Shown: positions 3,442 to 21,331 of the stretch, in pieces | Layout: each line of letters opens with the position of its first letter | How positions within the stretch are numbered: the stretch's first letter is position 1 | Assembly: GCA_964423665.1 (NCBI GenBank) | Contig: CAYRFX010000002.1 | Location: forward strand, 4,245-68,244 | Direction of reading: 5' to 3' | DNA length: 64,000 nucleotides | Source: an uncultured Bacteroidaceae bacterium | GTDB lineage: Bacteria; Bacteroidota; Bacteroidia; Bacteroidales; Bacteroidaceae | Notes under the pieces: generated by a model | Databases searched by the model: none | What the model was told of the DNA's origin: nothing | Seen by the model: the letters and a program-made list of their open reading frames with translations, nothing else | Program-made: the position numbers and the translations under genes

Positions 3442-5181
3442 TTATTTCTTTTCCCTATCGCTGTCTATCAGTTGCAAAAGGCGTTCTATAGCCTCTTCTT
3501 CGGGAATGTTTTTTTCCACGCACTCCTTTTGGCGATAAAGGCTCACTTTGCCACGCGCAGCACCCACATAACCATAATCGGCATCTGCCATTTCTCCGGG
3601 GCCGTTCACAATGCAGCCCATTACTCCTATTTTAAGTCCCTTGAGATGAGCGGTGGCAGCCTTTATTCGGGCAAGGGTTCCTTGCAGGTCATACATTGTG
3701 CGTCCACAACCGGGGCAGGCGATATATTCGGTCTTGCTAATGCGGGAACGTGTTGCCTGCAAAATACCAAAGGCGATGGAATTGATATCTGCCGCAGGGA
3801 TTGAGGGATTCTCTATCCACACACCATCTACGAGACCATCAATGAGAAGAACGCCAAGGTCGGCTGCCGCTTTTATGCGGAGGCTCTCAACGGCATTTTC
3901 GTTATAGCAGCGATGTACAATGACGGGCGCGGCAATGCCATTTGATGCAAGCTTATGAATAACAGCGCGCAACTCACCCACAGGATTCACATGCGTGCTG
4001 CTTGCAACTATTATTATATCTTTGAGTTCCTTCAGCTTGGTTATATTTTGCGGTGTGAGGCAACGGATACAAAGTGATATTACCGAACCATCAACAGCCT
4101 CATCGACACTCACTGTGTGCAACTGCGAACCTATAAAGTCGGGGGCAATATCGGGAGAATCTACCGCTTCGCCCACTACCACCGGCACCTGCGAGCCACC
4201 CACACAACCTACAACTGCCGTCGGGCGGCGCACCGGTTCCAGGTAACAGAAACCATCATAAACTTCACCCTCAATGGGGCGATGGGCTGCACGCTTTGCA
4301 ATATATTCCACCAGCTCTTTTGCCACAGGAATCTCATTCTCGGGAGCCTCGGCAAGGGATACTCGCACGGTGTCGCCTATTCCATCGGCAAGCAACGCGC
4401 CTATTCCCACCGCGCTCTTGATGCGACCATCTTCAGCATCGCCTGCCTCTGTTACGCCCAGGTGCAAGGGGAAAGAGACACCCTCGCTCTTCATTGCGGC
4501 AACCAGACGGCGCACGGTGGTAACCATCATTGCTGTGTTGCTTGTTTTTATGGAGACAACTACGTTATTGAAATTCTCATCACGACAGATGCGAAGGAAT
4601 TCCATACACGACTCCACCACACCCGAGGGAGTATCACCGTATCGGCTCATAATACGGTCGGACAATGAGCCGTGGTTCACACCCACGCGAATAGCTTTGC
4701 CCTGCTCCTTGCACAAATTGAGGAACGACACGAAACGCTCACGCAAGCGTTTGAGTTCCTCGGCATACTCGGCGTCGGTGTAATCAATATGTTTGAACAC
4801 ACGCGCGGCATCGACATAATTACCCGGATTCACACGCACCTTATCGGCATAACGCGCAGCAGTGTCGGCAACGGCAGCATTAAAGTGAACATCGGCAACA
4901 AGAGGTACATTGCAGCCACGGGCGCGCAATATCTCCTTGATGTTACCCAGATTAACGGCTTCGCGGTTACCTTGCGTGGTGAGGCGTACAAGCTCACCAC
5001 CCTTTGCAACAATGCGCATCACCTGCTCGGCACTGCTTTCGGTGTCCATGGTAGATGTGTTTGTCATTGATTGCACGCGCACCGGGTTATTGCAACCTAT
5101 TGCCACACCGCCCACATTCACCTCCACTGTGGAGCGACGATGGTAGTTAAATAAATCGGGATTAGTTTGTTTTGTACTCAT
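3442..5181 (-). CDS. ispG: 4-hydroxy-3-methylbut-2-en-1-yl diphosphate synthase, long Bacteroidetes-type form
   Basis: 579 aa. The N-terminal TIM-barrel part contains VRVQSMTNT...[10 protein letters not shown]. The C-terminal Fe-S part contains ACPGCGRT and GCIVNGPGE. Confidence 0.95.
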
Positions 5182-5694: not shown

Positions 5695-7686
5695 CTATGG
5701 TCTCTCCTTTATTATACCCTTGCGATAAGCCGTGAGGAGTTTTTCGAGGTCGCTTATCTTCAACATTATTCCACGACCTATATCTGTATCTGCCACATTC
5801 TCGCGACGTCCCATCATCTCCACAATCTGAGTGGTACTCTTAATATCGGTACCATTGATTACAGCCTCCTCAGTAGATTTGAAAGGCTCGTGCTGAACAA
5901 GTTGGAAACCACGGCTGTGATACACAAGCGTGTAACCGGCAATACCCGTGCGGTTGTGATATACACGAGAGAAACCGCCGTCAATCACCATCATGCGCCC
6001 ATCGGCTTTAATAGGTGTCTCACCCTTGAACACACGCACGGGAACGTGCCCGTTTATAATGTGGCGATGGCTGCCCTGAACACCGAACTCATCAAGGATA
6101 TAGTCGCACACCTCGGCTCTGTCGCGCAATATGTAGTACCAGCCTTTAGGTTCCTTCTGCACCTCTTTATCTGTGAGCAGATAACGCTCAAATGTTGCCA
6201 TTTTGGATTTTCCAAAAAGTGGCGAATGGGGACCGCACCAAAGATACCAGAAGAAATCTCTTGCAGCCTCGCGTTCTTGTGCATCGACATCATTATCGAA
6301 AGCCGAGCGGGCAATGCGCTCCACCCTCTTCATAAGATCCTTGCCCTTTACAACAACGCCGTTGATAGAGACCTCGCGCATTGTGCCGTCCTCGTTCAAA
6401 GGCACAGAGGCGTGGAACATGAGATTGGAGTTATATATCACATACATTCCGCCACGCATAAGCAAGCAATTTACATGGTTCTGCAAACGCTCGCTGCGGG
6501 TGAACGAATATCGCAAGCGCTCCATCAAATCCGCCTCCTCGGGCGTGAGGGCATAGGGGTTTGCGGGGTCAAGTGTGGGCCACTGAGTATCAAGCATGGA
6601 ATATTCCTTGCCATCAATGGTTATAGTGCCGCGCTCTTTGTTAATGTGCTCCATGAGACAACGATCCTGCATCTCCCAATGGGGATACTTTTGCGCTATA
6701 GCACCCGACAACTTAAACTCTATTACAGAGACAGCCTTGTGCATTTGCGCTATGAGACGAATATCCTTCTCGGTGTGGTTGGTACGCTCCTCATCAACAC
6801 GCGGGATATATATTTCGCAGGGGTCATCGGCATATTGCTCCATGGCAAAGGTTGCCAGCGGCACCATATTGATGGCATAGCCGTCTTCGAGAGTGCGGGT
6901 GTTGGCATCGCGCAAAGAGAGGCGCAACACGCTGGCGATGCAGCATAGATTACCTGCCGCCGCTCCCATCCACAGTACATCGTGGTTACCCCATGTAATA
7001 TCGAGATGGTGATAATTGCACAAGGTATCCATTATGAGATGCGCTCCCGGACCACGGTCAAAGATGTCGCCCAAAATGTGCAAGCGGTCTATTGCAAGAC
7101 GCTGAATGAGCGAGCAGAGGGCTATGATAAAGTGGTCGGCACGCCCTGTGCAGATTATAGTATTTACAATAGCCGAGAAGTATGCCTGTTTGTTGCGGTC
7201 GTCATTCGCTTCGTGCAAGAGTTCCTCAATTATGTAGGCATACTCTTCGGGGAGGCTTTTCCTCACCTTGGAACGAGTATATTTCGATGAAATATTGCGG
7301 CATACGGTAATAAGACGGTTAAGCATCACGGTGTAATACTCGTCCATATTCTCCACCTCCTGCTTTACAAGTTTCAGTTTCTTTTCGGGGTAATATATGA
7401 GAGTGCACAATTCTTTCTTGTCCCTGTCGGAAAGCGCACTGCCAAAGAGATCGTTTACCTTGCGCTTGATATTACCCGAAGCGTTACGAAGAACATGTTC
7501 AAACGCCTCATTCTCGCCATGCAAGTCGGCAAGGAAGTGCTCGGTGGGCTTGGGCAACTGCAATATCGCCTCCAAATTTATTATTTCGGTGGTTACGCTT
7601 GATACTGTGGGAAAATCGCGCGCCAGCAATCGCAGATAGCGCAAATCCTCTTTTACATCTTCAATAGAAATCTGTTTCTTTGCCAT
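5695..7686 (-). CDS. fbp: Fructose-1,6-bisphosphatase class 3
   Basis: Metallophosphoesterase motifs ADLHGE, GDIFDRGP and WGNHD in a protein of about 660 aa typical of FBPase III. I place the start at ATG 7686 (MAKKQISIEDV); the tracked start at 7713 is a GTG. Confidence 0.9.
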   Translation of the reverse strand: MAKKQISIEDVKEDLRYLRLLARDFPTVSSVTTEIINLEAILQLPKPTEHFLADLHGENEAFEHVLRNASGNIKRKVNDLFGSALSDRDKKELCTLIYYPEKKLKLVKQEVENMDEYYTVMLNRLITVCRNISSKYTRSKVRKSLPEEYAYIIEELLHEANDDRNKQAYFSAIVNTIICTGRADHFIIALCSLIQRLAIDRLHILGDIFDRGPGAHLIMDTLCNYHHLDITWGNHDVLWMGAAAGNLCCIASVLRLSLRDANTRTLEDGYAINMVPLATFAMEQYADDPCEIYIPRVDEERTNHTEKDIRLIAQMHKAVSVIEFKLSGAIAQKYPHWEMQDRCLMEHINKERGTITIDGKEYSMLDTQWPTLDPANPYALTPEEADLMERLRYSFTRSERLQNHVNCLLMRGGMYVIYNSNLMFHASVPLNEDGTMREVSINGVVVKGKDLMKRVERIARSAFDNDVDAQEREAARDFFWYLWCGPHSPLFGKSKMATFERYLLTDKEVQKEPKGWYYILRDRAEVCDYILDEFGVQGSHRHIINGHVPVRVFKGETPIKADGRMMVIDGGFSRVYHNRTGIAGYTLVYHSRGFQLVQHEPFKSTEEAVINGTDIKSTTQIVEMMGRRENVADTDIGRGIMLKISDLEKLLTAYRKGIIKERP

Positions 7687-7756
7687 ACATTTCTCTTTTT
7701 CAAGCCCCTTCACCGGGTGGCGTGCCCTGTGAAAGAACCTTATAACTCTATTATTG

Positions 7757-9297: not shown

Positions 9298-10941
9298 TCA
9301 ATAGGTGAAGGTGCTGCCACCCAAAAATTCACGTATAACCGAGGTGGGCGGCAATATATTCTCCTGCAAAGGTACAATATAATCCAAAAAACGCAATAGC
9401 CTGCGGGCAACAGAATATTCGCGACAACTCTGAGGAACAGCACGTAGCATCGGTTCCGCCTGAGCCTTGAACGCCGCAAGTTCATAAAAAAGCGAGGAGT
9501 TGAACATCACATCGGCATTCTCCTGATAGGGGAAAATCCACTCCTCTTCGCCCTCGCGCACGCTGGGCCAGCGGCTTATAGTCTCTATTGCCGAATATCC
9601 GCGATACTTTGCATCGCGCACCATGCGGCGCAGTAAACGCGTATCGGATGTGGATATATAATTATGATAGTCGAGTTTCATTGATGTGAGTGCCGAGACA
9701 TATATGCGGAACTTATCACTATCGGGTACCTGCTGTGTGAGCATTGGATTCAACCCATGGGTGCCCTCTATCACAAGCACCATCTGAGGGGTAAGCTTCA
9801 CCTTGTTGCCATGATATTCGCGTTTGCCGGTAACAAAATTATAATATGGCAACTCCACCTCCTCGCCGGCAAGAATCCTTGTGAGAGACTCGTTGAAATA
9901 TGGGAGGTCTATCGAATGAATCGATTCAAAATCATAATCTCCATTGGGCTTGCGCGGTGTAATAACTCTATCAACAAAGAAATCGTCGAGAGATATTGCA
10001 TGGGGCTTGAGCCCGCATGCCATAAGATGCACGCTGAGCCGCTTACTCGATGTAGTTTTTCCCGACGAAGAGGGACCGGCAATGAGCACCACGCGCGCAC
10101 CGCGTCTTTTTATCTCATCTGCCATGGCAGAAAAGCGTTTCTCCTGCAACGCTTCGGCTATATTAACCAAATCTACCTCGTGCCCCGTGTTTACAGCAAG
10201 ATTAAAATCGCCTATAGTCTCAACACCCATTATCTGATGCCAATGCAAGCGTTCCTCGAAACGCTCCTGCAACTTCTCCTGCGGCACTTTATCCTCGAGA
10301 GTTGTGGGGCACTCCTTGTCGGGGATGCGCAACAGCACACCCTCGGCAAATTTTTCTATCTCAAAGAGCTTTATATATCCCGTGCTGGGGAGAAGCCCCT
10401 CGTAATAGTGGTCTATATAATCTCCCAATTTATAATAGCTTGTATAGAGATACTTATAGGTTTTCAAAAGACGCACACGATCTATGCGCCCAAGCCTCTC
10501 AAAGACCTCGATAGCCTCGGAGGTGTGGCAATCGACACGATGAAAAGGTATATCCTCGGCAATGATAAGGCGCATGCGCTCACGCACTTGAGCAACCTGT
10601 TCCTCGCTCAGTTCCGTGTCCATACGGCAATAATATCCTTTTGAGATAGGGTTTTCAAAACGCACCACCCTGCCGGGGAAAAGGTCGTTCAAAGCCTTCA
10701 TCATTACAAAAGTGAGGGAGCGCACATAAACACGCATGCCATCATCGGAGGTGAGGTCGAGAAACTCCACATCCTTGTGATTATAGACCCTGAAATTCAG
10801 CCCCTCAATTTCGTTGTTCACGCGGGCTGCCACAGTTTCATAGGGGAGATTCAAATTAAACTCCTTACAGGCTTCACGCACGGTTATACCCGACTGAAAA
10901 GTCTTTGTCTCGCCATTGTTCACACAGAATATCTTTACCAT
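9298..10941 (-). CDS. TGS-like domain plus P-loop nucleoside (uridine) kinase-family protein
   Basis: P-loop IAGPSSSGKTTSSKRL in the middle of the protein and a ubiquitin-like/TGS-like N-terminus (MVKIFCVNNGETKTF). The specific substrate is not inferable from sequence. Confidence 0.75.
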   Translation of the reverse strand: MVKIFCVNNGETKTFQSGITVREACKEFNLNLPYETVAARVNNEIEGLNFRVYNHKDVEFLDLTSDDGMRVYVRSLTFVMMKALNDLFPGRVVRFENPISKGYYCRMDTELSEEQVAQVRERMRLIIAEDIPFHRVDCHTSEAIEVFERLGRIDRVRLLKTYKYLYTSYYKLGDYIDHYYEGLLPSTGYIKLFEIEKFAEGVLLRIPDKECPTTLEDKVPQEKLQERFEERLHWHQIMGVETIGDFNLAVNTGHEVDLVNIAEALQEKRFSAMADEIKRRGARVVLIAGPSSSGKTTSSKRLSVHLMACGLKPHAISLDDFFVDRVITPRKPNGDYDFESIHSIDLPYFNESLTRILAGEEVELPYYNFVTGKREYHGNKVKLTPQMVLVIEGTHGLNPMLTQQVPDSDKFRIYVSALTSMKLDYHNYISTSDTRLLRRMVRDAKYRGYSAIETISRWPSVREGEEEWIFPYQENADVMFNSSLFYELAAFKAQAEPMLRAVPQSCREYSVARRLLRFLDYIVPLQENILPPTSVIREFLGGSTFTY

Positions 10942-11076
10942 AGCCACAAATCTTTACAAACTATCATTAAGCGCGAAGTTAAACAGAATTTATCAGCATG
11001 CAACAGCAAAAGAGACTATTTTTATAATTTTATAATTTATTTGCAATTTGTTGTTTGCAGCAATAAAACATTATGC

Positions 11077-11084
11077 TAATTTTG
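11077..11084 (+). promoter_or_regulatory. Candidate -7 box (TAATTTTG) for the ATPase/DUF4435 pair
   Basis: Exact TAnnTTTG, with TTTG motifs 20-30 nt upstream (11047-11057), 56 nt before the ATG at 11140. Confidence 0.4.
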
Positions 11085-11139
11085 TAAACAGCGGGAGAAA
11101 GACTCCCTCTCTGTTTCCGTATGTTATAAAAGAGATATT

Positions 11140-11964
11140 ATGGAAAAACTTGGGCAATATATAAAAAGCATTGAGATTGATTCCCTGTGGGCAAAGCGCA
11201 AACATATATACTGGAAATTGCGCCCCGATGTAAACATTCTGAGCGGCAGCAACGGAATGGGAAAAAGCACAATCATAAACAGGTCGGCACGCCATTTGGA
11301 TATAATGCGCGAAGGACGGCTCACAACGAATCCCGAGAACGGAGTGCACATAACATTCTACCCCGAAGATGCCACAAGCATTGCTTTTGACGTTATAAGC
11401 AGCATCGACCGCCCGATTCTGCGCGGGGACCTGCTCGACAAGATTCCCGGTGCCGATATTCGCACCGAGCTCGACTGGCAGCTCTACAACTTGCAACGCC
11501 GTTATCTCAATTATCAGGTAAACATAGGCAACAAAATTATCGCATTGCTCACAAGCGGCAACCCCGAGGACCAAACAGCGGCAGCAGAGCTCACAAAACC
11601 CAAAAAAGTATTTCAGGACCTTGTAGATGAACTGTTCACCGCAACGGCAAAAACCATAAACCGCACAAGCAACGAGATTTTCTTTGAACAATATGGCGAA
11701 ACACTCTCGCCATACATGCTCTCCTCGGGCGAGAAACAGATACTTGTGATAATGCTCACCGCGTTGGTACAAGAGAACAGGCACTGCGTTATGCTCATGG
11801 ACGAGCCCGAGATATCGTTGCACATTGAATGGCAACAGAGACTTGTGAACATCATACGCACACTGAACCCCAATGCACAGATAATCCTTTGCACCCACTC
11901 ACCGGCAATAATAATGGACGGCTGGGCCGACGCAGTAATGGAGATGGAAGAGATTACCATATAA
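11140..11964 (+). CDS. Soluble ABC/SMC-type (AAA_21-like) ATPase, AriA-like
   Basis: 274 aa. Walker A GSNGMGKST (aa 36-44), ABC signature LSSGEKQ, Walker B/D-loop VMLMDEPEISLH, H-loop CTHSP. There are no transmembrane segments and no permease neighbour. Confidence 0.85.
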   Translation: MEKLGQYIKSIEIDSLWAKRKHIYWKLRPDVNILSGSNGMGKSTIINRSARHLDIMREGRLTTNPENGVHITFYPEDATSIAFDVISSIDRPILRGDLLDKIPGADIRTELDWQLYNLQRRYLNYQVNIGNKIIALLTSGNPEDQTAAAELTKPKKVFQDLVDELFTATAKTINRTSNEIFFEQYGETLSPYMLSSGEKQILVIMLTALVQENRHCVMLMDEPEISLHIEWQQRLVNIIRTLNPNAQIILCTHSPAIIMDGWADAVMEMEEITI

Positions 11965-11984
11965 CCACGCATTGCGCAAACACA

Positions 11985-13022
11985 ATGAAAAAACTCACAA
12001 GCTACCTCAATTCCGCTTTCATAGAGGCCGCCAACAAATTACGCCCTAAGAGAGCCAAAAACCGCATAATCGCCTATGTGGAGAGCTACGATGATATCTC
12101 TTTCTGGCGCAACATATTCGAGGAGTTTGAAAATGAGAACTATAAATTCGAGGTAATGTTGCCTGCACGCGGCAAGCTCACAAAAGGGAAAAAACAGGCA
12201 ATGATGAACATGCTGGGCGAGGCAGTGGGACGCAACATGATTGCCTGCGTCGATGCCGATTATGATTACCTCATGCAGGGAACCACGGAGACATCGCGGC
12301 AACTCATAAACAACCCGTATATTCTGCACACATATGCATACGCAATAGAGAATCTCAAATGCTACTCGCAAAGCCTTAAGCAGGTGTGTGTGCAGAGCAC
12401 GCTCAATGATATGAACGTGATGGATATTCCTGCATTCATGAAGCTATACTCGCAGATATGCTACCCGCTGTTTGTATGGAACATTCTATTATACCGCAAG
12501 CACGACCTCAAGACAATGAGCATGCAACGTTTCTGCGAAATTGTCAGGCTCACATCATTCAATATAGAGAACCCGGCAATAGCACTGAAACAATTAGAGG
12601 GACGCGTGAGCCATAACATATCCCTCATGGAGAGACACAAGCCACACCTGTTGCCCGAGTATGAGAATCTGAAAGATGAACTTGCAGCAATGAATATCCT
12701 GCCCGAGGAATGCTACTTCTACATTCAGGGGCATCACATAATGGACAGCGTTGTCATGCGCATTCTCTCCCCCATATGCCGCTATCTGCGGGGCAAGCGC
12801 GAGAGAGAAATTGAGAAGTTTGCATACCATCGCCAGCAATATTCAAACGAGCTGTCATCGTACCGGCACAGCCTGTGCGATGTGGCACTTATGCTGAAGA
12901 AGAACACCAATTACAAAGAGGCCCCGCCATACAAAAGGCTGAGAGCCGACATTGAAAAGCTGTTGCAAACGATAGGAGATGAAGAAGGGGTCGCTACTGA
13001 CGCTTCCAAAAAGCAGGCATAA
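11985..13022 (+). CDS. DUF4435-like / Toprim-like predicted nuclease, AriB-like
   Basis: 346 aa from ATG 11985 (MKKLTSYL), 20 nt after the ATPase stop. Toprim-type acidic motifs are IIAYVESYDD (Glu33, nt 12081-12083) and IACVDADYD (Asp90-x-Asp92, nt 12252-12260). The DUF4435 assignment is from pattern recognition, not a search. Confidence 0.7.
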   Translation: MKKLTSYLNSAFIEAANKLRPKRAKNRIIAYVESYDDISFWRNIFEEFENENYKFEVMLPARGKLTKGKKQAMMNMLGEAVGRNMIACVDADYDYLMQGTTETSRQLINNPYILHTYAYAIENLKCYSQSLKQVCVQSTLNDMNVMDIPAFMKLYSQICYPLFVWNILLYRKHDLKTMSMQRFCEIVRLTSFNIENPAIALKQLEGRVSHNISLMERHKPHLLPEYENLKDELAAMNILPEECYFYIQGHHIMDSVVMRILSPICRYLRGKREREIEKFAYHRQQYSNELSSYRHSLCDVALMLKKNTNYKEAPPYKRLRADIEKLLQTIGDEEGVATDASKKQA

Positions 13023-14448
13023 GCAACAATAGCACAGCAAAGAATTCCAAACGACCAACCAACATCTGGAACGAGCAGAACCATTTTACAACCGCAGGCA
13101 GAGAGGCGAATGAATCCATTGGTCCATAATGCCCCAGCGCAGGCCCCACATTGCTGACAGAGGTTGCCGACAGACCATAGGCATCAAGAAAGTCGAGCCC
13201 AAAAATCATATTCACAAAAATTCCCACAACAATAGTTGCCACATATATAACCGTATATGCCAATATTGCCGACTGCACCGATGTGGGCACAATCTTGCCA
13301 CTCATACGCACGGGAATAACGGCATTTGGGTGCAATATACGCTTGAACTCATTGAACATTACGCGCCCCAGGATTGATATGCGGGCACACTTCATGGCGC
13401 CGCTTGTAGAGCCCGAGCAGGCACCAAGAAACATAAGCGCGCTCAACATAAGCCACAAAATGGGCAACCACAGCACATAATTGGAGGTTGCAAAACCTGT
13501 AGTTGTCTGCATTGAAACAACCTGAAACAGCGAGGTGCGGAAAGCCTCCTCCACCCCCATTGACGAAGAGAAGAAGAGACCGGCGGCTATTATTACCGTA
13601 AAAAGCAACACCGACCCGGCATATACACGAAACTCACTATCACGGAACAAATCCCCGAAACGAGCCTTGAAGAGGAAGAGATAGAGCAACGACAAGTTCA
13701 CTCCGCCAAGGAACATAAAAAGAGTAACCACATAATCAATGAGCGGAGAATTAAATGCCGCGATGCTCGCCTGCTTGGTGGAGAAGCCACCCGTGGCAAT
13801 AGTGGACATTGCATGACACACAGCATCGAACTTGCCCATTCCTGCAAAATAAAACGAAACGGTTGCTATGATTGTGAGCCCCACATATATAGAAAGAATC
13901 CATCGCGCTGCAACCGATATTCGGGGGTGCAGCTTAGCACGCATAGGCCCCACAGACTCGGCAGCAAAGAGGTTTATATCCCCTAACCCAAAGACCGGGA
14001 AAACCGCAACGGTGAAAAAGACTATACCCAAGCCACCTACCCAATGTGTCATCGCACGCCAAAAGAGAAGGCTGTGCGGGAGAGCCTCGATATCGTTGAG
14101 AACAGTGGCTCCCGTGGTGGAGAAGCCCGACATTGTCTCAAAGAAAGCATCTGTTACAGAGGGGAGGCAGCCGCTGAGATAATAGGGAGCCGCACCAAAG
14201 AAAGAGAATATTATCCAGCAAAGAGTAACAACGATATAGCCGTCCTTGCGCGACACATTGCGCTCTTTACCACGCCCTATGTAGGTGAGAAGCGATCCCG
14301 TGCCCACCATTGCGGCAATACTGTAAATATATGTCCCAAGGTCTGTCTCATGATAGAACAACGCTACCATAAGACCGGTTAAAAGGAACGCCGCTTCAAT
14401 GAGCAGCAACATTCCAATAATGCGGGATATGATTTTGGGGTGAAACAT
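12994..14448 (-). CDS. trkH: Trk-type potassium uptake membrane subunit
   Basis: Polytopic membrane protein of about 484 aa with repeated pore-like segments (SGFSTTGAT, ATGGFST, MQTTTGFAT, SNVGPALG). The start ATG at 14448 shares 1 nt with the trkA stop. Confidence 0.9.
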   Translation of the reverse strand: MFHPKIISRIIGMLLLIEAAFLLTGLMVALFYHETDLGTYIYSIAAMVGTGSLLTYIGRGKERNVSRKDGYIVVTLCWIIFSFFGAAPYYLSGCLPSVTDAFFETMSGFSTTGATVLNDIEALPHSLLFWRAMTHWVGGLGIVFFTVAVFPVFGLGDINLFAAESVGPMRAKLHPRISVAARWILSIYVGLTIIATVSFYFAGMGKFDAVCHAMSTIATGGFSTKQASIAAFNSPLIDYVVTLFMFLGGVNLSLLYLFLFKARFGDLFRDSEFRVYAGSVLLFTVIIAAGLFFSSSMGVEEAFRTSLFQVVSMQTTTGFATSNYVLWLPILWLMLSALMFLGACSGSTSGAMKCARISILGRVMFNEFKRILHPNAVIPVRMSGKIVPTSVQSAILAYTVIYVATIVVGIFVNMIFGLDFLDAYGLSATSVSNVGPALGHYGPMDSFASLPAVVKWFCSFQMLVGRLEFFAVLLLLMPAFWKRQ

Positions 14449-15785
14449 CACTCAAAAAATTTTTCCAACTTCTTTATCACATGTTCCAGGCAGAAGATAA
14501 TCACATGGTCATCGGCTTGAATAACGGTATTACCTGTAACGTGCATACCCTCGCCGTTTCGTATAAGACCACCGATATTGGCGCCCGAGGGCAACTGCAA
14601 GTCCTTCACTGCCTTTTTGGTTATGGGAGCCCCCTCTTTCACAGGGAACTCCACGACAACAGCCTGAATGAAAGTGAGACACTTGACGCTTGATACATCG
14701 GTATTCAGCATCATCTGGAAGATATTGCTTGCCGCCAGTTTCTTCTTGTTTATAACCGAACCGATGTCCATATTTTCTGCCATGGAGATATAATCGATAT
14801 TCTCAATCTCGGCAACGGTACGATACACGCCCGAACGTTTTGCCGAGAGGCAGGCAAGAATGTTTGTTTCAGAATTATCGCTCAACGCAATAAAGGCATC
14901 GGTGTGCTCAACACCCTCGCTGCGCAACAGCTCGGGGTCGCGTGCATCACCATTTATTATCATCACCTTGTCATCGACAAGCTCAAGCAATTTGCGGCAA
15001 CGCGCAAGGTCGCTCTCAATTATTTTAACCTTTATATTATCGGGGATAAGCTTTGTCGTGCGCACCGCTATGCGGCTGCCGCCCATAATTATAATGCTGC
15101 GCACTTCCGTGAACTCCGACTTTCCGCACATGTTGCGCACAAAAGGAATTTTATCCTTCACCGTCATGAAACAGACAAGGTCATCGGGCTCTATCGAATC
15201 GTTTCCGCGAGGTATAATGGTTTCATCGCCACGCTGTATTGCCACTATATGATAAGGAGTGTTGCTGGGAAAATCCTTGAAGAGTGTACCCAATATGGGA
15301 GCTCCTGTACGCACCTTCACGCCCACCATAACCAATGCCCCATCGCCAAATTCAAGGAACTGCCTCATCCAGCAATATTTTATGCTGGTGGCAATCTCTT
15401 CGGCAGCAAGCTGCTCGGGGTAAATGAGAGAGTCTATGCCCAACGAGGCAAAATAGCCTTTATGTTTGGGTTGCAGATACTCATAATTATCTATTCGTGC
15501 CACGGTTTTCCGCGCACCAAGATAATGAGCAAGTATGCAAGCAGTTACATTATCGCTCTCATTGGGGGTAACCGCAACGAAGAGGTCGGCATCATCAACG
15601 CCGGCAAGTTTAAGGTCGGAAATTTTGGTAGGCTGCCCCACTTGGGCTTTGAGGTCGAAGAGAGTTTCCATTTTACCCAACTTCTCCTCGCTTTCGTCCA
15701 TAAGCACCACATTTTCGTTACCTACGGAGAGCATCTTTGCCAAATGCGTACCAACTGCACCTGCGCCGGCTATAACAATTTTCAT
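14448..15785 (-). CDS. trkA: Trk system NAD-binding subunit
   Basis: 445 aa with a duplicated Rossmann/RCK architecture (MKIVIAGAGAVGTHLA; IIIMGGSRIAVRT). Confidence 0.9.
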   Translation of the reverse strand: MKIVIAGAGAVGTHLAKMLSVGNENVVLMDESEEKLGKMETLFDLKAQVGQPTKISDLKLAGVDDADLFVAVTPNESDNVTACILAHYLGARKTVARIDNYEYLQPKHKGYFASLGIDSLIYPEQLAAEEIATSIKYCWMRQFLEFGDGALVMVGVKVRTGAPILGTLFKDFPSNTPYHIVAIQRGDETIIPRGNDSIEPDDLVCFMTVKDKIPFVRNMCGKSEFTEVRSIIIMGGSRIAVRTTKLIPDNIKVKIIESDLARCRKLLELVDDKVMIINGDARDPELLRSEGVEHTDAFIALSDNSETNILACLSAKRSGVYRTVAEIENIDYISMAENMDIGSVINKKKLAASNIFQMMLNTDVSSVKCLTFIQAVVVEFPVKEGAPITKKAVKDLQLPSGANIGGLIRNGEGMHVTGNTVIQADDHVIIFCLEHVIKKLEKFFE

Positions 15786-17879: not shown

Positions 17880-18875
17880 ATGCAACTGACCACTCCGGTA
17901 GCGCCACAGAACAGCAATTTTGAAATTACGCACAAAAGCATCATGCTGCTTTTGGGCTCATGCTTTGCGCAAAACATCGGGCACAGATTGCAGGCCGGCA
18001 AATTCGATGTGTGCATAAACCCGTTCGGGATAATTTACAACCCGCTATCAATAGCAACAATACTGGAACGAATTATAAACGGGAAGGAGTTCACAGAAAG
18101 TTCTCCCGAGATTTTCGAGCACGGGGAAAAATGGCACAGCATACTGCATCACGGCGATTTTTCGCGCAAGACAAAGGAAGAGTTGCTCGCCGCCATTAAC
18201 ACGGCTTTGGGAGATGCACACCGGCGCATTACCAACACAGACATTCTCATTATAACATTCGGCACGGCTTATGTTTACACCCGTAAAAGCGACGGGCTCA
18301 CTACAAGCAACTGCCATAAATTACCGGCAAGCTGTTTCGAGCGCAGATTGTTGAGTATCGGAGAAATTACAGAGGCGATGAGCAACGTGCTCACCCCTAT
18401 AACGACAGCCTGCCCCGATATAAAAATAATATTTACGGTGAGCCCCATAAGACACCTGCGCGACGGGGCACACGACAACCAGATGAGCAAAGCCACGCTG
18501 CTGCTTGCAGCAGAACAGTTGCAGAAACTTTACAGGCACAACACCGTGTATTTCCCTGCATACGAAATTATGCTCGACGAGTTGCGCGACTATCGGTTTT
18601 ATGCCGAGGACATGACCCATCCCTCACCTCTGGCAGTGGAATATATATGGCAGAAGTTTTCCGGCACATACATAAGCGACAGCAGCCACACCCTGTGCAA
18701 GGCAATAGAAGAGATTGACCGCGCGCTCGCACACAGACCTTTTGATGCCGGGAGCAACGCATACAAGGAGTTTGTGCGCGCCACACTAAAAAAGATTGAC
18801 GCCATAGAGGCGCAACACCCTCACCTTCATTTTGAAAAAGAGAGAGAACAATGCAATACACTATTGAACAGATAA
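17880..18875 (+). CDS. GSCFA-family protein
   Basis: Literal GSCFA motif (LLLGSCFAQNIG) near the N-terminus; 331 aa. Confidence 0.85.
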   Translation: MQLTTPVAPQNSNFEITHKSIMLLLGSCFAQNIGHRLQAGKFDVCINPFGIIYNPLSIATILERIINGKEFTESSPEIFEHGEKWHSILHHGDFSRKTKEELLAAINTALGDAHRRITNTDILIITFGTAYVYTRKSDGLTTSNCHKLPASCFERRLLSIGEITEAMSNVLTPITTACPDIKIIFTVSPIRHLRDGAHDNQMSKATLLLAAEQLQKLYRHNTVYFPAYEIMLDELRDYRFYAEDMTHPSPLAVEYIWQKFSGTYISDSSHTLCKAIEEIDRALAHRPFDAGSNAYKEFVRATLKKIDAIEAQHPHLHFEKEREQCNTLLNR

Positions 18876-21331
18876 CAGAGATTCTGAAAGCAGAACACAT
18901 AGGGACACATGCAGAATACGTTGTCTCGCGCCTGCTCACCGACAGCCGTTCACTCGGATTCCCCGAGGAGACACTCTTTTTTGCCATCAAGACCAAGCAT
19001 GGCGATGGAAAGCAGTTTATCGAAGAGCTGTACAAGCGCGGTGTGAAAAATTTTGTAGTGGAAAGCAATAAAAACATTACCCTGTACCCCGATGCAAACT
19101 TTCTTGTTGTAAACAACAGCATAAACGCGCTGCAACGCCTGGCAACCCACCACCGCAAGCAGTTCAACATTCCCGTTGTGGGAATTACAGGCAGTGATGG
19201 AAAAACCATCGTTAAAGAGTGGCTCTATCACCTAACTGCCGCAAACTACATGGTAACCCGCTCGCCACGTAGCTACAACTCGCAGATAGGCGTGCCGTTA
19301 TCGGTGTGGCAACTCGGCGAGGAGAGCACATTGGGAATATTTGAAGCAGGAATATCACAACCACGGGAGATGGACAACCTGCAACGCATAATAACCCCCA
19401 CAATAGGTATTATAACAAATATCAGCGTGGCGCATCAGGAGAACTTCAGCACCATGCAGGAGAAGTGCCGCGAAAAACTCGCACTCTTCAAAGGCTGCGA
19501 TATCGTTATATACAATGCCGACAATCCATTGATTTCCGGCTGCATAAACCAGGTATTGCTGCCCTCGCGCGAAATTGCATGGTCGCAAAAGGACCCGGAA
19601 AGGGCTCTGTTTATAAAAGCCATAGAAAAGGAGGAAGAAGGGACAACCATAAGATATCGTTATCTTGCGTTCGACAACAGCTATCGCATACCCTTCCTCG
19701 ACGACGCCTCCATTGAGGACTCAATAAACTGCCTTGCCGCAGCCCTTTATCTGATGATACCCCCTGAAACCATTGCCCTGCGCATGGCACAGTTAGAGCC
19801 TGTTGCTATGCGCCTGGAGGTGAAAGAGGGGAAAAACGGCTGCATGCTCATCAACGACAGCTACAATGCCGACACCGCATCACTCGACATTGCACTCGAC
19901 TTCATGAAACGCCGCTGCAGCACCCTGCCTCATCTGAAAAAAACACTCATACTATCGGACATTAAACAGACAGGGCTTGCCACACGCGCTCTTTACGCCA
20001 CTGTTGCACAATATGTTACCCACCACAGAATTGACAAATTCATAGGTATAGGAAAAGATATTTCAAGCGAGAAAGAGCGTTTGAAAAAGATGAACTGCGA
20101 ATTACACCTGTTTGACACAAGTGATGAATTCCTGCACAGCGAGCAACTGCACAACTTTACAAATGAGATAATCCTTATCAAAGGTGCCCGCGCCTTCCAT
20201 TTTGAAGATATAACAGAGGCGCTTGAAAAGAAGGTGCACCAAACTATTCTCGAGGTAAACCTGAGCGCCTTGCGCGACAACCTCAACCACTACCGCAACA
20301 ACCTGTCGCCCGATACAAAGACAATATGCATGGTAAAAGCATCGGCATACGGAGCCGGAGCAATGGAGGTTGCACGCACATTGCAGGATTGCCGTGTAGA
20401 TTATCTCGCCGTTGCCGTTGCCGACGAGGGAGCCGAACTGCGCAAAGCCGGCATCACCACAGGAATAATTGTGATGAACCCCGAACCCGGCACGGTGCGC
20501 ACACTTTTTGACAACAAGCTGGAACCCGAGGTTTACAGTTTCGGCATGTTGCGCATGCTGGCACAGGCAGCCTGCCGCGAAGGAATAACAGACTACCCTA
20601 TACACATAAAGATAGATACCGGAATGCACCGTTTGGGTTTTCTCCCAAGCGAGATACCGGCTCTGATAGAGGAGTTGAAAAAGCAGAATTCGCTCACGCC
20701 ACGCTCGGTATTCTCTCACTTTGTGGGCAGCGACAGCGACCGCTTCGACTCTTTTTCAAGAGAACAAATAAAGCGGTTCGAGCAAGCGAGCAGCATGCTC
20801 CAAGCCGCGTTCAAGCATAAGATTCTGCGCCACATTTGCAACAGCGCAGGAGCTGAACGTTTCACAGATGTACAATACGAGGCTGTACGCCTGGGAATAG
20901 GGCTTTATGGAGTTTCACCTATGGGGAACGATGCCACATTGCGCCCCATCTCCACACTCAAAACCATCATATTGCAGATACACGATGTTCCAGCCGACGA
21001 AACAGTGGGATACAGCCGCAAAGGAGAGTTGCAACGCCCATCACGCATCGCGGCATTACCCATAGGATACGCCGACGGGCTCAATCGGCACTTGGGCAAT
21101 CGACACGGATATTGCCTCATAAACGGCAAAGCCGCATCTTATGTGGGCAATATATGCATGGATGTATGCATGGTAGATGTAACCGATATCGACTGCCACG
21201 AAGGTGATGTTGTGGAGATTTTCGGCACAAATCTATCGGTAGAAACTGTTGCCGGCTGGTTAGACACCATACCCTACGAGGTGCTTACCGCCGTCTCCAC
21301 CCGAATCAAAAGAATATATTTCAGTGATTAA
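18851..21331 (+). CDS. Bifunctional UDP-N-acetylmuramoyl-tripeptide--D-alanyl-D-alanine ligase / alanine racemase
   Basis: The N-terminal half has the Mur ligase P-loop VGITGSDGKT. The C-terminal half has the alanine racemase PLP-lysine motif MVKASAYGAG and a typical C-terminus (YEVLTAVSTRIKRIY). It overlaps the GSCFA gene by 25 nt. Confidence 0.88.
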   Translation: MQYTIEQITEILKAEHIGTHAEYVVSRLLTDSRSLGFPEETLFFAIKTKHGDGKQFIEELYKRGVKNFVVESNKNITLYPDANFLVVNNSINALQRLATHHRKQFNIPVVGITGSDGKTIVKEWLYHLTAANYMVTRSPRSYNSQIGVPLSVWQLGEESTLGIFEAGISQPREMDNLQRIITPTIGIITNISVAHQENFSTMQEKCREKLALFKGCDIVIYNADNPLISGCINQVLLPSREIAWSQKDPERALFIKAIEKEEEGTTIRYRYLAFDNSYRIPFLDDASIEDSINCLAAALYLMIPPETIALRMAQLEPVAMRLEVKEGKNGCMLINDSYNADTASLDIALDFMKRRCSTLPHLKKTLILSDIKQTGLATRALYATVAQYVTHHRIDKFIGIGKDISSEKERLKKMNCELHLFDTSDEFLHSEQLHNFTNEIILIKGARAFHFEDITEALEKKVHQTILEVNLSALRDNLNHYRNNLSPDTKTICMVKASAYGAGAMEVARTLQDCRVDYLAVAVADEGAELRKAGITTGIIVMNPEPGTVRTLFDNKLEPEVYSFGMLRMLAQAACREGITDYPIHIKIDTGMHRLGFLPSEIPALIEELKKQNSLTPRSVFSHFVGSDSDRFDSFSREQIKRFEQASSMLQAAFKHKILRHICNSAGAERFTDVQYEAVRLGIGLYGVSPMGNDATLRPISTLKTIILQIHDVPADETVGYSRKGELQRPSRIAALPIGYADGLNRHLGNRHGYCLINGKAASYVGNICMDVCMVDVTDIDCHEGDVVEIFGTNLSVETVAGWLDTIPYEVLTAVSTRIKRIYFSD

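Follow-up and report, generated by a model that had tools for sequence, protein, structure and literature searches.

A compact PARIS-like ATPase–Toprim gene pair kept at one chromosomal site in related Bacteroidaceae

Defence censuses count every combination of an AAA_15/21 match with a DUF4435 match as a PARIS immune system, and the locus described here raises the question of what such a call stands for. The DNA that we analysed, a stretch of 64,000 nucleotides (nt) from contig CAYRFX010000002.1 of an uncultured Bacteroidaceae bacterium (the window in what follows), carries among housekeeping genes two adjoining genes on the plus strand: gene 1 (11140–11964), an open reading frame (ORF) of 274 amino acids (aa) for an AriA-like, compact ABC ATPase of the Rad50/SMC-like AAA_15/AAA_21 type, and gene 2 (11985–13022, with its ATG at 11985), which encodes a DUF4435 Toprim protein of 345 aa. 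An earlier examination of the letters alone (the sequence-only reading) had taken this pair for a PARIS-like cassette wedged between housekeeping operons. We asked whether the pair is a mobile cassette at all, how it has been inherited within the family, and what function its domains and relatives suggest.

Domain content of the pair and its call as PARIS

The published detection rule for PARIS, of the DefenseFinder type (PMC9122126), asks for adjacent genes, one with at least 32 bits for AAA_15 or at least 27 bits for AAA_21, the other with at least 27 bits for DUF4435. Gene 1 scored 59.6 bits for AAA_15 (5.6e-16) and 59.3 bits for AAA_21 (8.4e-16), with a further match to SMC_N (4.5e-13); gene 2 scored 170.7 bits for DUF4435 (6e-50, positions 1–234 of 238); and a spacer of 20 nt (11965–11984) separates the two, so that the rule calls the pair as PARIS. 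The best PADLOC models for the pair were those of AriA and AriB: PDLC04164, the AriA model of a compact subtype, matched gene 1 end to end (1.2e-54; residues 3–273 on positions 3–251 of 253), and gene 2 matched the AriB models PDLC02983 (3.1e-56) and PDLC04165 (2.9e-34), the latter being the 289-position AriB model of the same compact subtype. The pair is, in other words, already detectable and labelled PARIS by existing software, which settles whether current models cover it—a point that the sequence-only reading had left aside—and bears out the view, expressed there, that an ABC ATPase coupled to DUF4435/Toprim is the PARIS architecture. That view was to be given up if gene 2 had no DUF4435 match, and the match that we found is a strong one. 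In the remaining protein collections, NCBIfam gave no match above cut-off for gene 1 and no match whatsoever for gene 2, the PHROGs matches were confined to ATPase families of unknown function for gene 1 and were marginal for gene 2, and a tblastn search of the INPHARED phage genomes returned no match for gene 2 or for an AriA fragment.

The two genes form one operon, and their common direction and 20-nt gap, as described earlier, were verified from the ORFs and the spacer; of the protein sizes given at that time, 274 aa for gene 1 stood, while gene 2 has 345 aa and not 346. The homologues of both genes in Bacteroides finegoldii overlap by 23 nt.

Translation of gene 1 yielded the Walker A motif GSNGMGKST with K42 (11245–11271), the ABC signature LSSGEKQ (11719–11739), the Walker B and D-loop segment VMLMDEPEISLH (11788–11823; D221, catalytic E222 and S226-L-H228), which contains VMLMDEPE at 11788–11811 and SLH at 11815–11823, and the H-loop CTHSP with H253 (11890–11904). 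In 27 sequences reaching down to 39% identity, G36, N38, G39, G41, K42 and T44 of Walker A, L194, S195, G197, E198, K199 and Q200 of the signature, and T252, H253, S254 and P255 of the H-loop were invariant. The Walker B/D-loop segment aligned with LIDEPEISLH of the solved AriA (PDB 8ux9), including E393, whose replacement in AriA E393A gives an ATPase mutant (PMC11464382); the same correspondence was returned by hhalign against the AriA of Pseudoalteromonas sp. THAF3 (L164), whose PARIS pair served us as the canonical-type proxy, its AriB (3797–4729) matching 8ux9_A at 6e-70. With all catalytic motifs present and invariant, gene 1 is predicted to encode a catalytically intact ABC ATPase. The protein is unusually small, as had been remarked before (274 aa versus 464 aa for solved AriA), and the distance from Walker A to the signature is short as well, although it amounts to 150 aa and not to the approximately 160 first claimed.

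The AlphaFold model of gene 1 had a mean predicted local distance difference test score (pLDDT) of 63.6 and was of low quality at the C-terminus and in the greater part of the N-terminal lobe; its confident segment, residues 110–165, shows a helical stub of about 55 residues. The folds matched by this model were those of defence ATPases (PtuA, AriA), with the highest sequence identity to AriA, and given that pLDDT these matches serve as family-level support only. Two proteins that topped the profile search with the compact-ATPase alignment, P0476 (390 aa) and P0477 (456 aa), may have a wrongly called start, be fusions or be truly extended.

Since gene 1 also has weak matches to transporter ATPases, and some of its relatives are recorded as 'ABC transporter ATP-binding protein', we considered whether it might be the orphan nucleotide-binding subunit of an ABC transporter standing beside an unrelated gene. 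To this we give next to no probability: ABC_tran reached 24.3 bits against a cut-off of 25, no NCBIfam transporter model came near its cut-off, genes for a permease or a binding protein are missing from the vicinity, and gene 1 is coupled to DUF4435 in nearly every locus.

For gene 2, the AlphaFold2 model (mean pLDDT 94.2) consists of an N-terminal Toprim domain at about residues 25–125 and an all-helical C-terminal domain at 128–344. The acidic residues of the Toprim site lie in three places: the first pair, E33 and D37, in ESYDD (12081–12095) of the motif YVESYDD; the DxD(xD) motif D90-A-D92-Y-D94 (12252–12266) of CVDADYD; and the fifth residue, E122 of AIENL, at 12348–12350. In 72 sequences with identities down to 25%, E33, D37, D90, D92 and E122 were invariant, and D94 was at least 90% conserved. 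Gene 2 has an intact two-metal Toprim site followed by the helical C-terminal domain. All the motifs that had been quoted for the two genes were recovered by translation. Protein P0596 and other gene 2 homologues of about 46% identity carry the JGI/IMG label 'ElaB/YqjD/DUF883 family membrane-anchored ribosome-binding protein', which is probably spurious and driven by the long C-terminal helices.

Synteny, co-divergence and selection in Bacteroidaceae

With the neighbouring kinase as a synteny probe against one genome per species, we obtained 49 Bacteroidaceae loci, and in 44 of these the pair stood at the same site, always with its two genes adjacent. The five exceptions (L034–L037 and L041) have another gene order on that side and are also without the fructose-1,6-bisphosphatase (FBPase) gene, trkH and trkA there, so that they are uninformative as to absence of the pair; neither the pair nor trkH/trkA occurred within the sequence at those loci, which extends to up to 10 kb of flank. 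These five form a sister group whose kinase is about 70% identical and whose kinase–rpoN block is joined to different genes, and L072 (gene 1 72%, gene 2 63%, in a different context) may represent a rearranged sister lineage. The order FBPase–rpoN–kinase, gene 1–gene 2, trkH–trkA–dxs recurred in further contigs that we found by way of homologues.

The mean identities to the window were 83% for gene 1 and 74% for gene 2, to be compared with 77.5% for the kinase, 76% for TrkH, 83% for TrkA, 80% for Dxs and 64% for RpoN. The ratios of non-synonymous to synonymous substitution rates (dN/dS), calculated for sequences so divergent that synonymous changes have reached saturation (dS > 1), were 0.050 for gene 1 and 0.053 for gene 2 versus 0.027–0.070 for the neighbours. 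In a Mantel test the distances of the pair correlated with those of TrkA plus Dxs at r = 0.966, a value reached in none of 2000 permutations and on par with the correlation of TrkA with Dxs (0.94–0.95); in the close clade alone r was 0.87, and the distance matrices of gene 1 and gene 2 correlated with each other at r = 0.96. Internal stops were absent from all 123 orthologues of gene 1 and all 131 of gene 2. The pair is an ancient acquisition of the Bacteroidaceae lineage and has since then been inherited vertically, as a single-copy chromosomal unit under purifying selection of housekeeping level.

These results speak directly to the idea of a recently inserted, accessory mobile defence cassette, which had been advanced from the strand of the pair, opposite to that of all its neighbours, and which its defence-type domains might also suggest. 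The strand observation as such held: in the gene list of the window the pair is on the plus strand, and partial cysS (which runs off the window start), ispG, FBPase, rpoN, the PRK-family kinase gene, trkH, trkA and dxs are all on the minus strand, the plus-strand ORF at 37–1056 being a shadow of cysS. Because the pair is syntenic in 44 of 49 loci and conserved like those neighbours, the opposite strand nevertheless says nothing about insertion. The identities track those of the neighbours, with a Mantel r of 0.97; the GC content of the pair (0.47–0.48) resembles theirs (0.47–0.50); no tRNA gene or flanking repeats, as possible insertion scars, were found around the pair, nor an integrase or transposase among the window neighbours; and the 3' end of gene 2 overlaps that of trkH. 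Recent insertion is for these reasons refuted for this clade, and we assign it a very small probability overall. The earlier statement that integrase, transposase and compositional break are missing proved correct, whereas the inserted-cassette interpretation built around it did not survive; its fallback of an 'old domesticated insertion or variant subtype' came close to the truth, with recent insertion as the part that failed. The sequence-only reading had also proposed a comparison of synteny, in which conservation of the pair in the manner of a core gene would count against a cassette, and this is essentially the pattern that the 44 loci display.

Relatives in other lineages and surroundings of the pair

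The coupling of the two genes extends beyond those genomes. Among 80 loci from a metagenome scan, at least part of gene 1 lay directly upstream of gene 2 in 78, one of the two exceptions being a contig of 1.5 kb; identities there were mostly 57–65% for gene 1 and 46–54% for gene 2. In the deeper loci that have trkH–trkA–dxs beside the pair, gene 1 was 59–60% and gene 2 46–48% identical, the corresponding values being 49–51% for TrkH, 61–63% for TrkA and 62–65% for Dxs, so that across a far deeper split, too, the pair and these genes have kept pace in their divergence. The other metagenome loci fell into a few recurrent contexts, all of housekeeping genes. In B. finegoldii the homologues, an AAA family ATPase and a DUF4435 protein, lie between meaB and a DMT transporter on one side and MscS on the other. 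Homologues of the pair were named in Phocaeicola massiliensis, P. salanitronis, P. barnesiae, P. faecicola and P. coprophilus, in Bacteroides mediterraneensis and among 'MULTISPECIES [Bacteroidaceae]' RefSeq proteins; an identical Phocaeicola-type sequence of 278 aa is indexed in 8357 blocks of the sequence collection, and its context, made up of housekeeping genes, was the same at the three places looked at. Further away, we found a homologue of 37% identity in Tannerellaceae, again among housekeeping genes, and a family member at about 36% in a gammaproteobacterium.

Distant pairs, with AriB identities of 21–31%, occur on mobile elements, namely plasmids and prophage-like contigs. The Klebsiella pneumoniae plasmid pK708696-4 (L159), of ColE1 type and 4416 bp, has a pair of a 325-aa ATPase and a 325-aa DUF4435 protein, which is its sole cargo apart from Rop and a helix-turn-helix gene and in this sense a minimal mobile version; on a Psychrobacter plasmid a compact-subtype pair adjoins parA/parG; and two IMG/VR contigs, L151 (6985–9014) and L153 (6988–9056), carry pairs with ATPases of 333–339 aa at about 1–2 kb from tape-measure genes, a vicinity typical of morons. 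The models PDLC04164 and PDLC04165 match the B. finegoldii, prophage-borne, Klebsiella plasmid and Psychrobacter plasmid pairs as well, and the plasmid and phage members of the compact subtype, with ATPases of 325–339 aa, are mobile, whereas the window pair, with its 274 aa, is fixed. The family is mobile as a whole, and its Bacteroidaceae branch is fixed. Two PLSDB entries from the family, L157 (NZ_OY725943.1, B. finegoldii 'plasmid 41') and L158 (OY726067.1, P. massiliensis 'plasmid 93'), carry chromosomal genes (alpha-2-macroglobulin, meaB, MscS, TonB-dependent receptor), are typed as non-mobilizable, and look like chromosome fragments deposited as plasmids.

A relative that constitutes the sole cargo of a 4.4-kb ColE1 plasmid recalls a selfish toxin–antitoxin module, which would be kept because loss of the ATPase 'antitoxin' is lethal and would confer no benefit on the host; the depositors of the PDB entries indeed call AriA an 'antitoxin', and free AriB is toxic in E. 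coli (PMC11464382). Addiction, however, gives the toxin gene no protection from decay, and gene 2 has a dN/dS of 0.053, its catalytic site is invariant and its 131 orthologues are free of stops, with purifying selection that holds at a divergence with dS > 1. Selection of this kind on the toxin-like gene means that pure addiction cannot explain the pair, and we hold it to be improbable.

In Phocaeicola-type and other Bacteroidaceae contexts, an Upf1-like superfamily 1 helicase (AAA_11/AAA_12, 624–630 aa) stands divergently upstream of the pair, as in L161–L163 (5010–6885) and in the metagenome loci L090, L099, L100 and L103, often with a DMT (EamA) gene in between. Such a setting recalls the sets of ATPase–Toprim plus helicase in OLD class 2 and Gabija. 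A functional link with the helicase or the DMT transporter was rejected: the helicase is not adjacent in B. finegoldii, neither gene is adjacent in the clade of the window, and the 64 kb contain no homologue of either.

Upstream, gene 1 shares a divergent intergenic region with the PRK-family kinase gene (9298–10947, minus strand), and a promoter-like element of the Bacteroidetes type can be read there on the plus strand at 11054–11084: TTTG (-33), 19 nt, and TAATTTTG (-7), the -7 box occupying 11077–11084 and the element lying about 55 nt upstream of the gene 1 ATG. Bacteroides promoters have a consensus of this kind, with a -33 TTTG and a -7 box. The pattern TTTGN{18,22}TANNTTTG has five matches in the window versus 1.6 expected, one of them upstream of gene 1, where it may function as the promoter of the operon. 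A scan for sigma-70 promoters and terminators gave the same result as shuffled sequences, sigma-70 being the wrong promoter type for Bacteroidetes. Position 11077, with which the locus had first been taken to begin, is not a coding start, as it lies 63 nt before the ATG, yet it coincides with the -7 box TAATTTTG. An Rfam scan of 10500–13500 returned sub-threshold chance matches only.

Downstream, gene 2 converges on trkH (12994–14451, minus strand), and their 3' ends overlap by 29 nt (12994–13022), which leaves no space for a terminator between the two; a similar overlap is present in the closest species (e.g., L001–L003), and L066 has a gap of 7 nt instead. An antisense shadow ORF of 275 aa (11071–11898, minus strand) covers gene 1 and is one codon longer than it, so that gene calling by longest ORF picks the wrong strand there, as seen in several loci; since such shadows mislead that procedure, the gene-context strings of the loci were checked against tblastn coordinates. 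Elsewhere in the neighbourhood, the FBPase (5695–7713, minus strand) is of the 'Firmicute' class 3 type (FBPase_2, E = 2.9e-296) and is the best-conserved gene, with a mean identity of 85%, and an 826-aa ORF at 18851–21331 (plus strand) fuses a Mur ligase with the N- and C-terminal domains of alanine racemase (MurF-Alr-like), preceded by a GSCFA-family gene in an arrangement kept in related loci.

Possible function and comparison with known systems

PARIS has been solved from the P4-like satellite of E. coli B185 (PDB 8UX9, 8V45–8V49) and belongs to class 4 of the OLD family, in which the ABC ATPase and the Toprim nuclease are separate polypeptides (PMC11464382); the pair described here, an AAA_15/21-type ABC ATPase gene adjoining a Toprim nuclease gene, has the same composition. 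In the characterised AriA, the elements IS1 (residues 122–180) and IS2 (residues 242–289) together with an extended helical domain build a D3 homohexamer and its trigger-binding pores, and in the characterised E. coli system the anti-restriction protein Ocr is the trigger, upon which AriB is freed and cuts tRNA-Lys, and the system protects against phage.

We incline, without great assurance, to the interpretation that the Bacteroidaceae pair is a compact, PARIS-like Toprim nuclease system, gated by ATP and fixed in the lineage, which is probably still triggered by stress or phage. An anti-phage role is plausible, as the default suggested by homology and by the mobile relatives, and it is by analogy with these that we infer complex formation, ATP gating and the substrate. 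Gene 1 would be an ATPase of the OLD class 4/PARIS kind whose long helical domain is cut to the stub of about 55 residues, and it would act as an ATP-sandwich dimer, unlike E. coli AriA with its propeller-shaped hexamer, the oligomerisation modules being missing. This ATPase would bind the nuclease and hold it inactive; a signal would elicit an ATP-dependent conformational change by which the nuclease would be freed or activated; and gene 2 would then cut structured RNA, for which tRNA is the precedent, with growth arrest as the consequence.

Several results weigh against this interpretation. Anti-phage systems do not typically show synteny across a family, lack of turnover and strong purifying selection, and such a pattern fits a cellular function at least as well. 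The best PDB sequence match of gene 1 was AriA itself (8ux9_B, 464 aa, 2.3e-15), and that alignment covers residues 192–267 plus a weak Walker A stretch; hhalign of the compact-ATPase profile with the canonical-type AriA gave 68 columns from the signature to the H-loop (44% identity, E = 5e-17), and beyond this C-terminal core nothing of gene 1 aligned. Between Walker A and the signature AriA has about 320 residues versus the 150 of gene 1, so that IS1, IS2 and the extended helical domain cannot fit in the 274-aa protein; with 68–76 C-terminal residues aligned, these hexamer and trigger-pore modules are not present in it. The description of gene 1 as bearing a stub and no coiled coil draws only on its length, the alignment and the confident segment 110–165. 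As for gene 2, neither single-sequence phmmer nor the 72-sequence profile found any PDB sequence, although AriB is in the PDB set; hhalign with the canonical-type AriB gave a probability of 0.4% and aligned only the VEsxDD motif; and Foldseek of the model (pLDDT 94) found no significant match in the PDB, where the best E was 0.6, or in BFVD. What the pair has in common with the E. coli system is the C-terminal core of the ATPase and the acidic site of the Toprim domain, and the sequence gives no warrant for transferring Ocr sensing by a hexamer and tRNA-Lys cleavage to the pair.

A housekeeping role is a serious rival to defence, one that we regard as possible but not as probable. The pair would then be a core, ATP-regulated Toprim RNase or DNase acting on a cellular substrate, in RNA maturation or quality control (cf. 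RNase M5) or in DNA repair (cf. RecF/RecR, Rad50/Mre11), it would not, or would no longer, serve against phages, and the name 'PARIS' would express family resemblance only; such a nuclease might, again tentatively, descend from mobile PARIS-like modules or be ancestral to them. Synteny, co-divergence and a dN/dS on par with trkA, dxs and the kinase are what a gene of this kind would exhibit, as is the integrity of all 123 and 131 orthologues; the flanks are housekeeping in every genus context, with no integrase, transposase or other defence gene nearby; gene 1 has no room for the sensor and hexamer modules of AriA, and gene 2 detectably resembles solved AriB at the catalytic site only; and the active site of AriB itself resembles that of the rRNA-maturing RNase M5 (PMC12409363). 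Against a housekeeping role, the closest families in every profile search were defence ATPases and AriB, distant members of the compact subtype reside on small plasmids and prophages, where housekeeping is unlikely, and the presence of the family in Gammaproteobacteria at about 36% identity indicates mobility at depth. The local variable patches would, moreover, suit a sensor surface: residues 51–80 and 141–150 of gene 1 and 191–240 of gene 2, with additional variability in the C-terminal tail in the pair, the patch at 51–80 coinciding with the site, just after the Walker A helix, where more than 60 residues are inserted in a phage-borne relative.

Under either account, a PARIS call in the Bacteroidaceae sampled denotes a single-copy, syntenic, vertically inherited pair under selection like that on trkA and dxs, and its stripped-down ATPase cannot work like the solved E. 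coli complex. If the pair serves defence, it may exemplify something rare, a module of the abortive-infection type that has become a fixed core gene on the timescale of a family, which raises the question of the conserved trigger that it guards against. If the housekeeping alternative is true, a Toprim nuclease has been mislabelled as immunity, the PARIS calls behind the apparent enrichment in the human gut are for the most part a vertically inherited core gene outside the mobile defensome, the statistics of the gut defensome have to be read differently, and the pair points to an unknown step of RNA or DNA processing in a dominant gut lineage.

PARIS calls are concentrated in gut Bacteroidales: a census reported them in 20% of gut metagenome-assembled genomes, mainly of Bacteroidales, and characterised the system as a 'second line' of defence that is specific to the gut and rich in Bacteroidales (PMC10924106), and a PARIS system has been reported in B. 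fragilis NCTC 9343. The published PARIS phylogeny distinguishes 11 clades and makes no remark on core-like inheritance; our full-text searches found no paper tying DUF4435 to Bacteroides, nor, in the literature searched, experimental work on the compact PADLOC subtype. What is undescribed in that literature is the core-gene status of the pair, an ATPase without the AriA scaffold modules, and the distance from solved AriB.

Among the other systems compared, the ATPases of Septu and retrons (PtuA/PtuB), Gabija (GajA), P2 Old and AbiL belong to the same AAA_15/21 family as gene 1; models and structures of PtuA were its next-best matches, and AbiLi matched relatives at about 1e-15. The partner PtuB is, however, an HNH protein, and in Old and GajA the Toprim domain is fused to the ATPase, whereas here DUF4435/Toprim is on a separate polypeptide; the operon of the pair has no helicase or reverse transcriptase. 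RNase M5, which matures 5S rRNA, also has a two-metal Toprim site, one that the site of AriB resembles, and RecF/RecR come to mind where an SMC-like ATPase is coupled to a Toprim protein; both are functional analogies only, as the pair has no sequence match to either family. The recF model TIGR00611 gave gene 1 only 23.5 bits versus a cut-off of 172, and gene 2 matched no NCBIfam model.

The nearest known system is PARIS, with which the pair has in common the two-gene operon of an ABC ATPase and a DUF4435/Toprim protein. The residues E33, D37, D90, D92 and E122 of gene 2 match, with the same spacing, the acidic residues E26, D30, D88, E90 and E122 of the AriB Toprim site (PMC11464382), and PDLC02983 is matched over most of its length both by gene 2 and by the canonical-type AriB (2e-10). 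That AriB has, nevertheless, no Pfam DUF4435 match at E <= 0.01, as opposed to the 171 bits of gene 2, and reaches 39 bits with the DUF4435-derived model of PADLOC versus 170–235 bits for the Bacteroidaceae proteins; it follows that the Pfam family is centred on proteins like gene 2, with E. coli AriB at its periphery, and Pfam-based detection of PARIS is biased towards Bacteroidales-type proteins. The pair differs, finally, in its mode of inheritance: PARIS as characterised in E. coli is carried by satellites, phages or defence hotspots and is patchily distributed, whereas the Bacteroidaceae pair is chromosomal, syntenic and vertically inherited.

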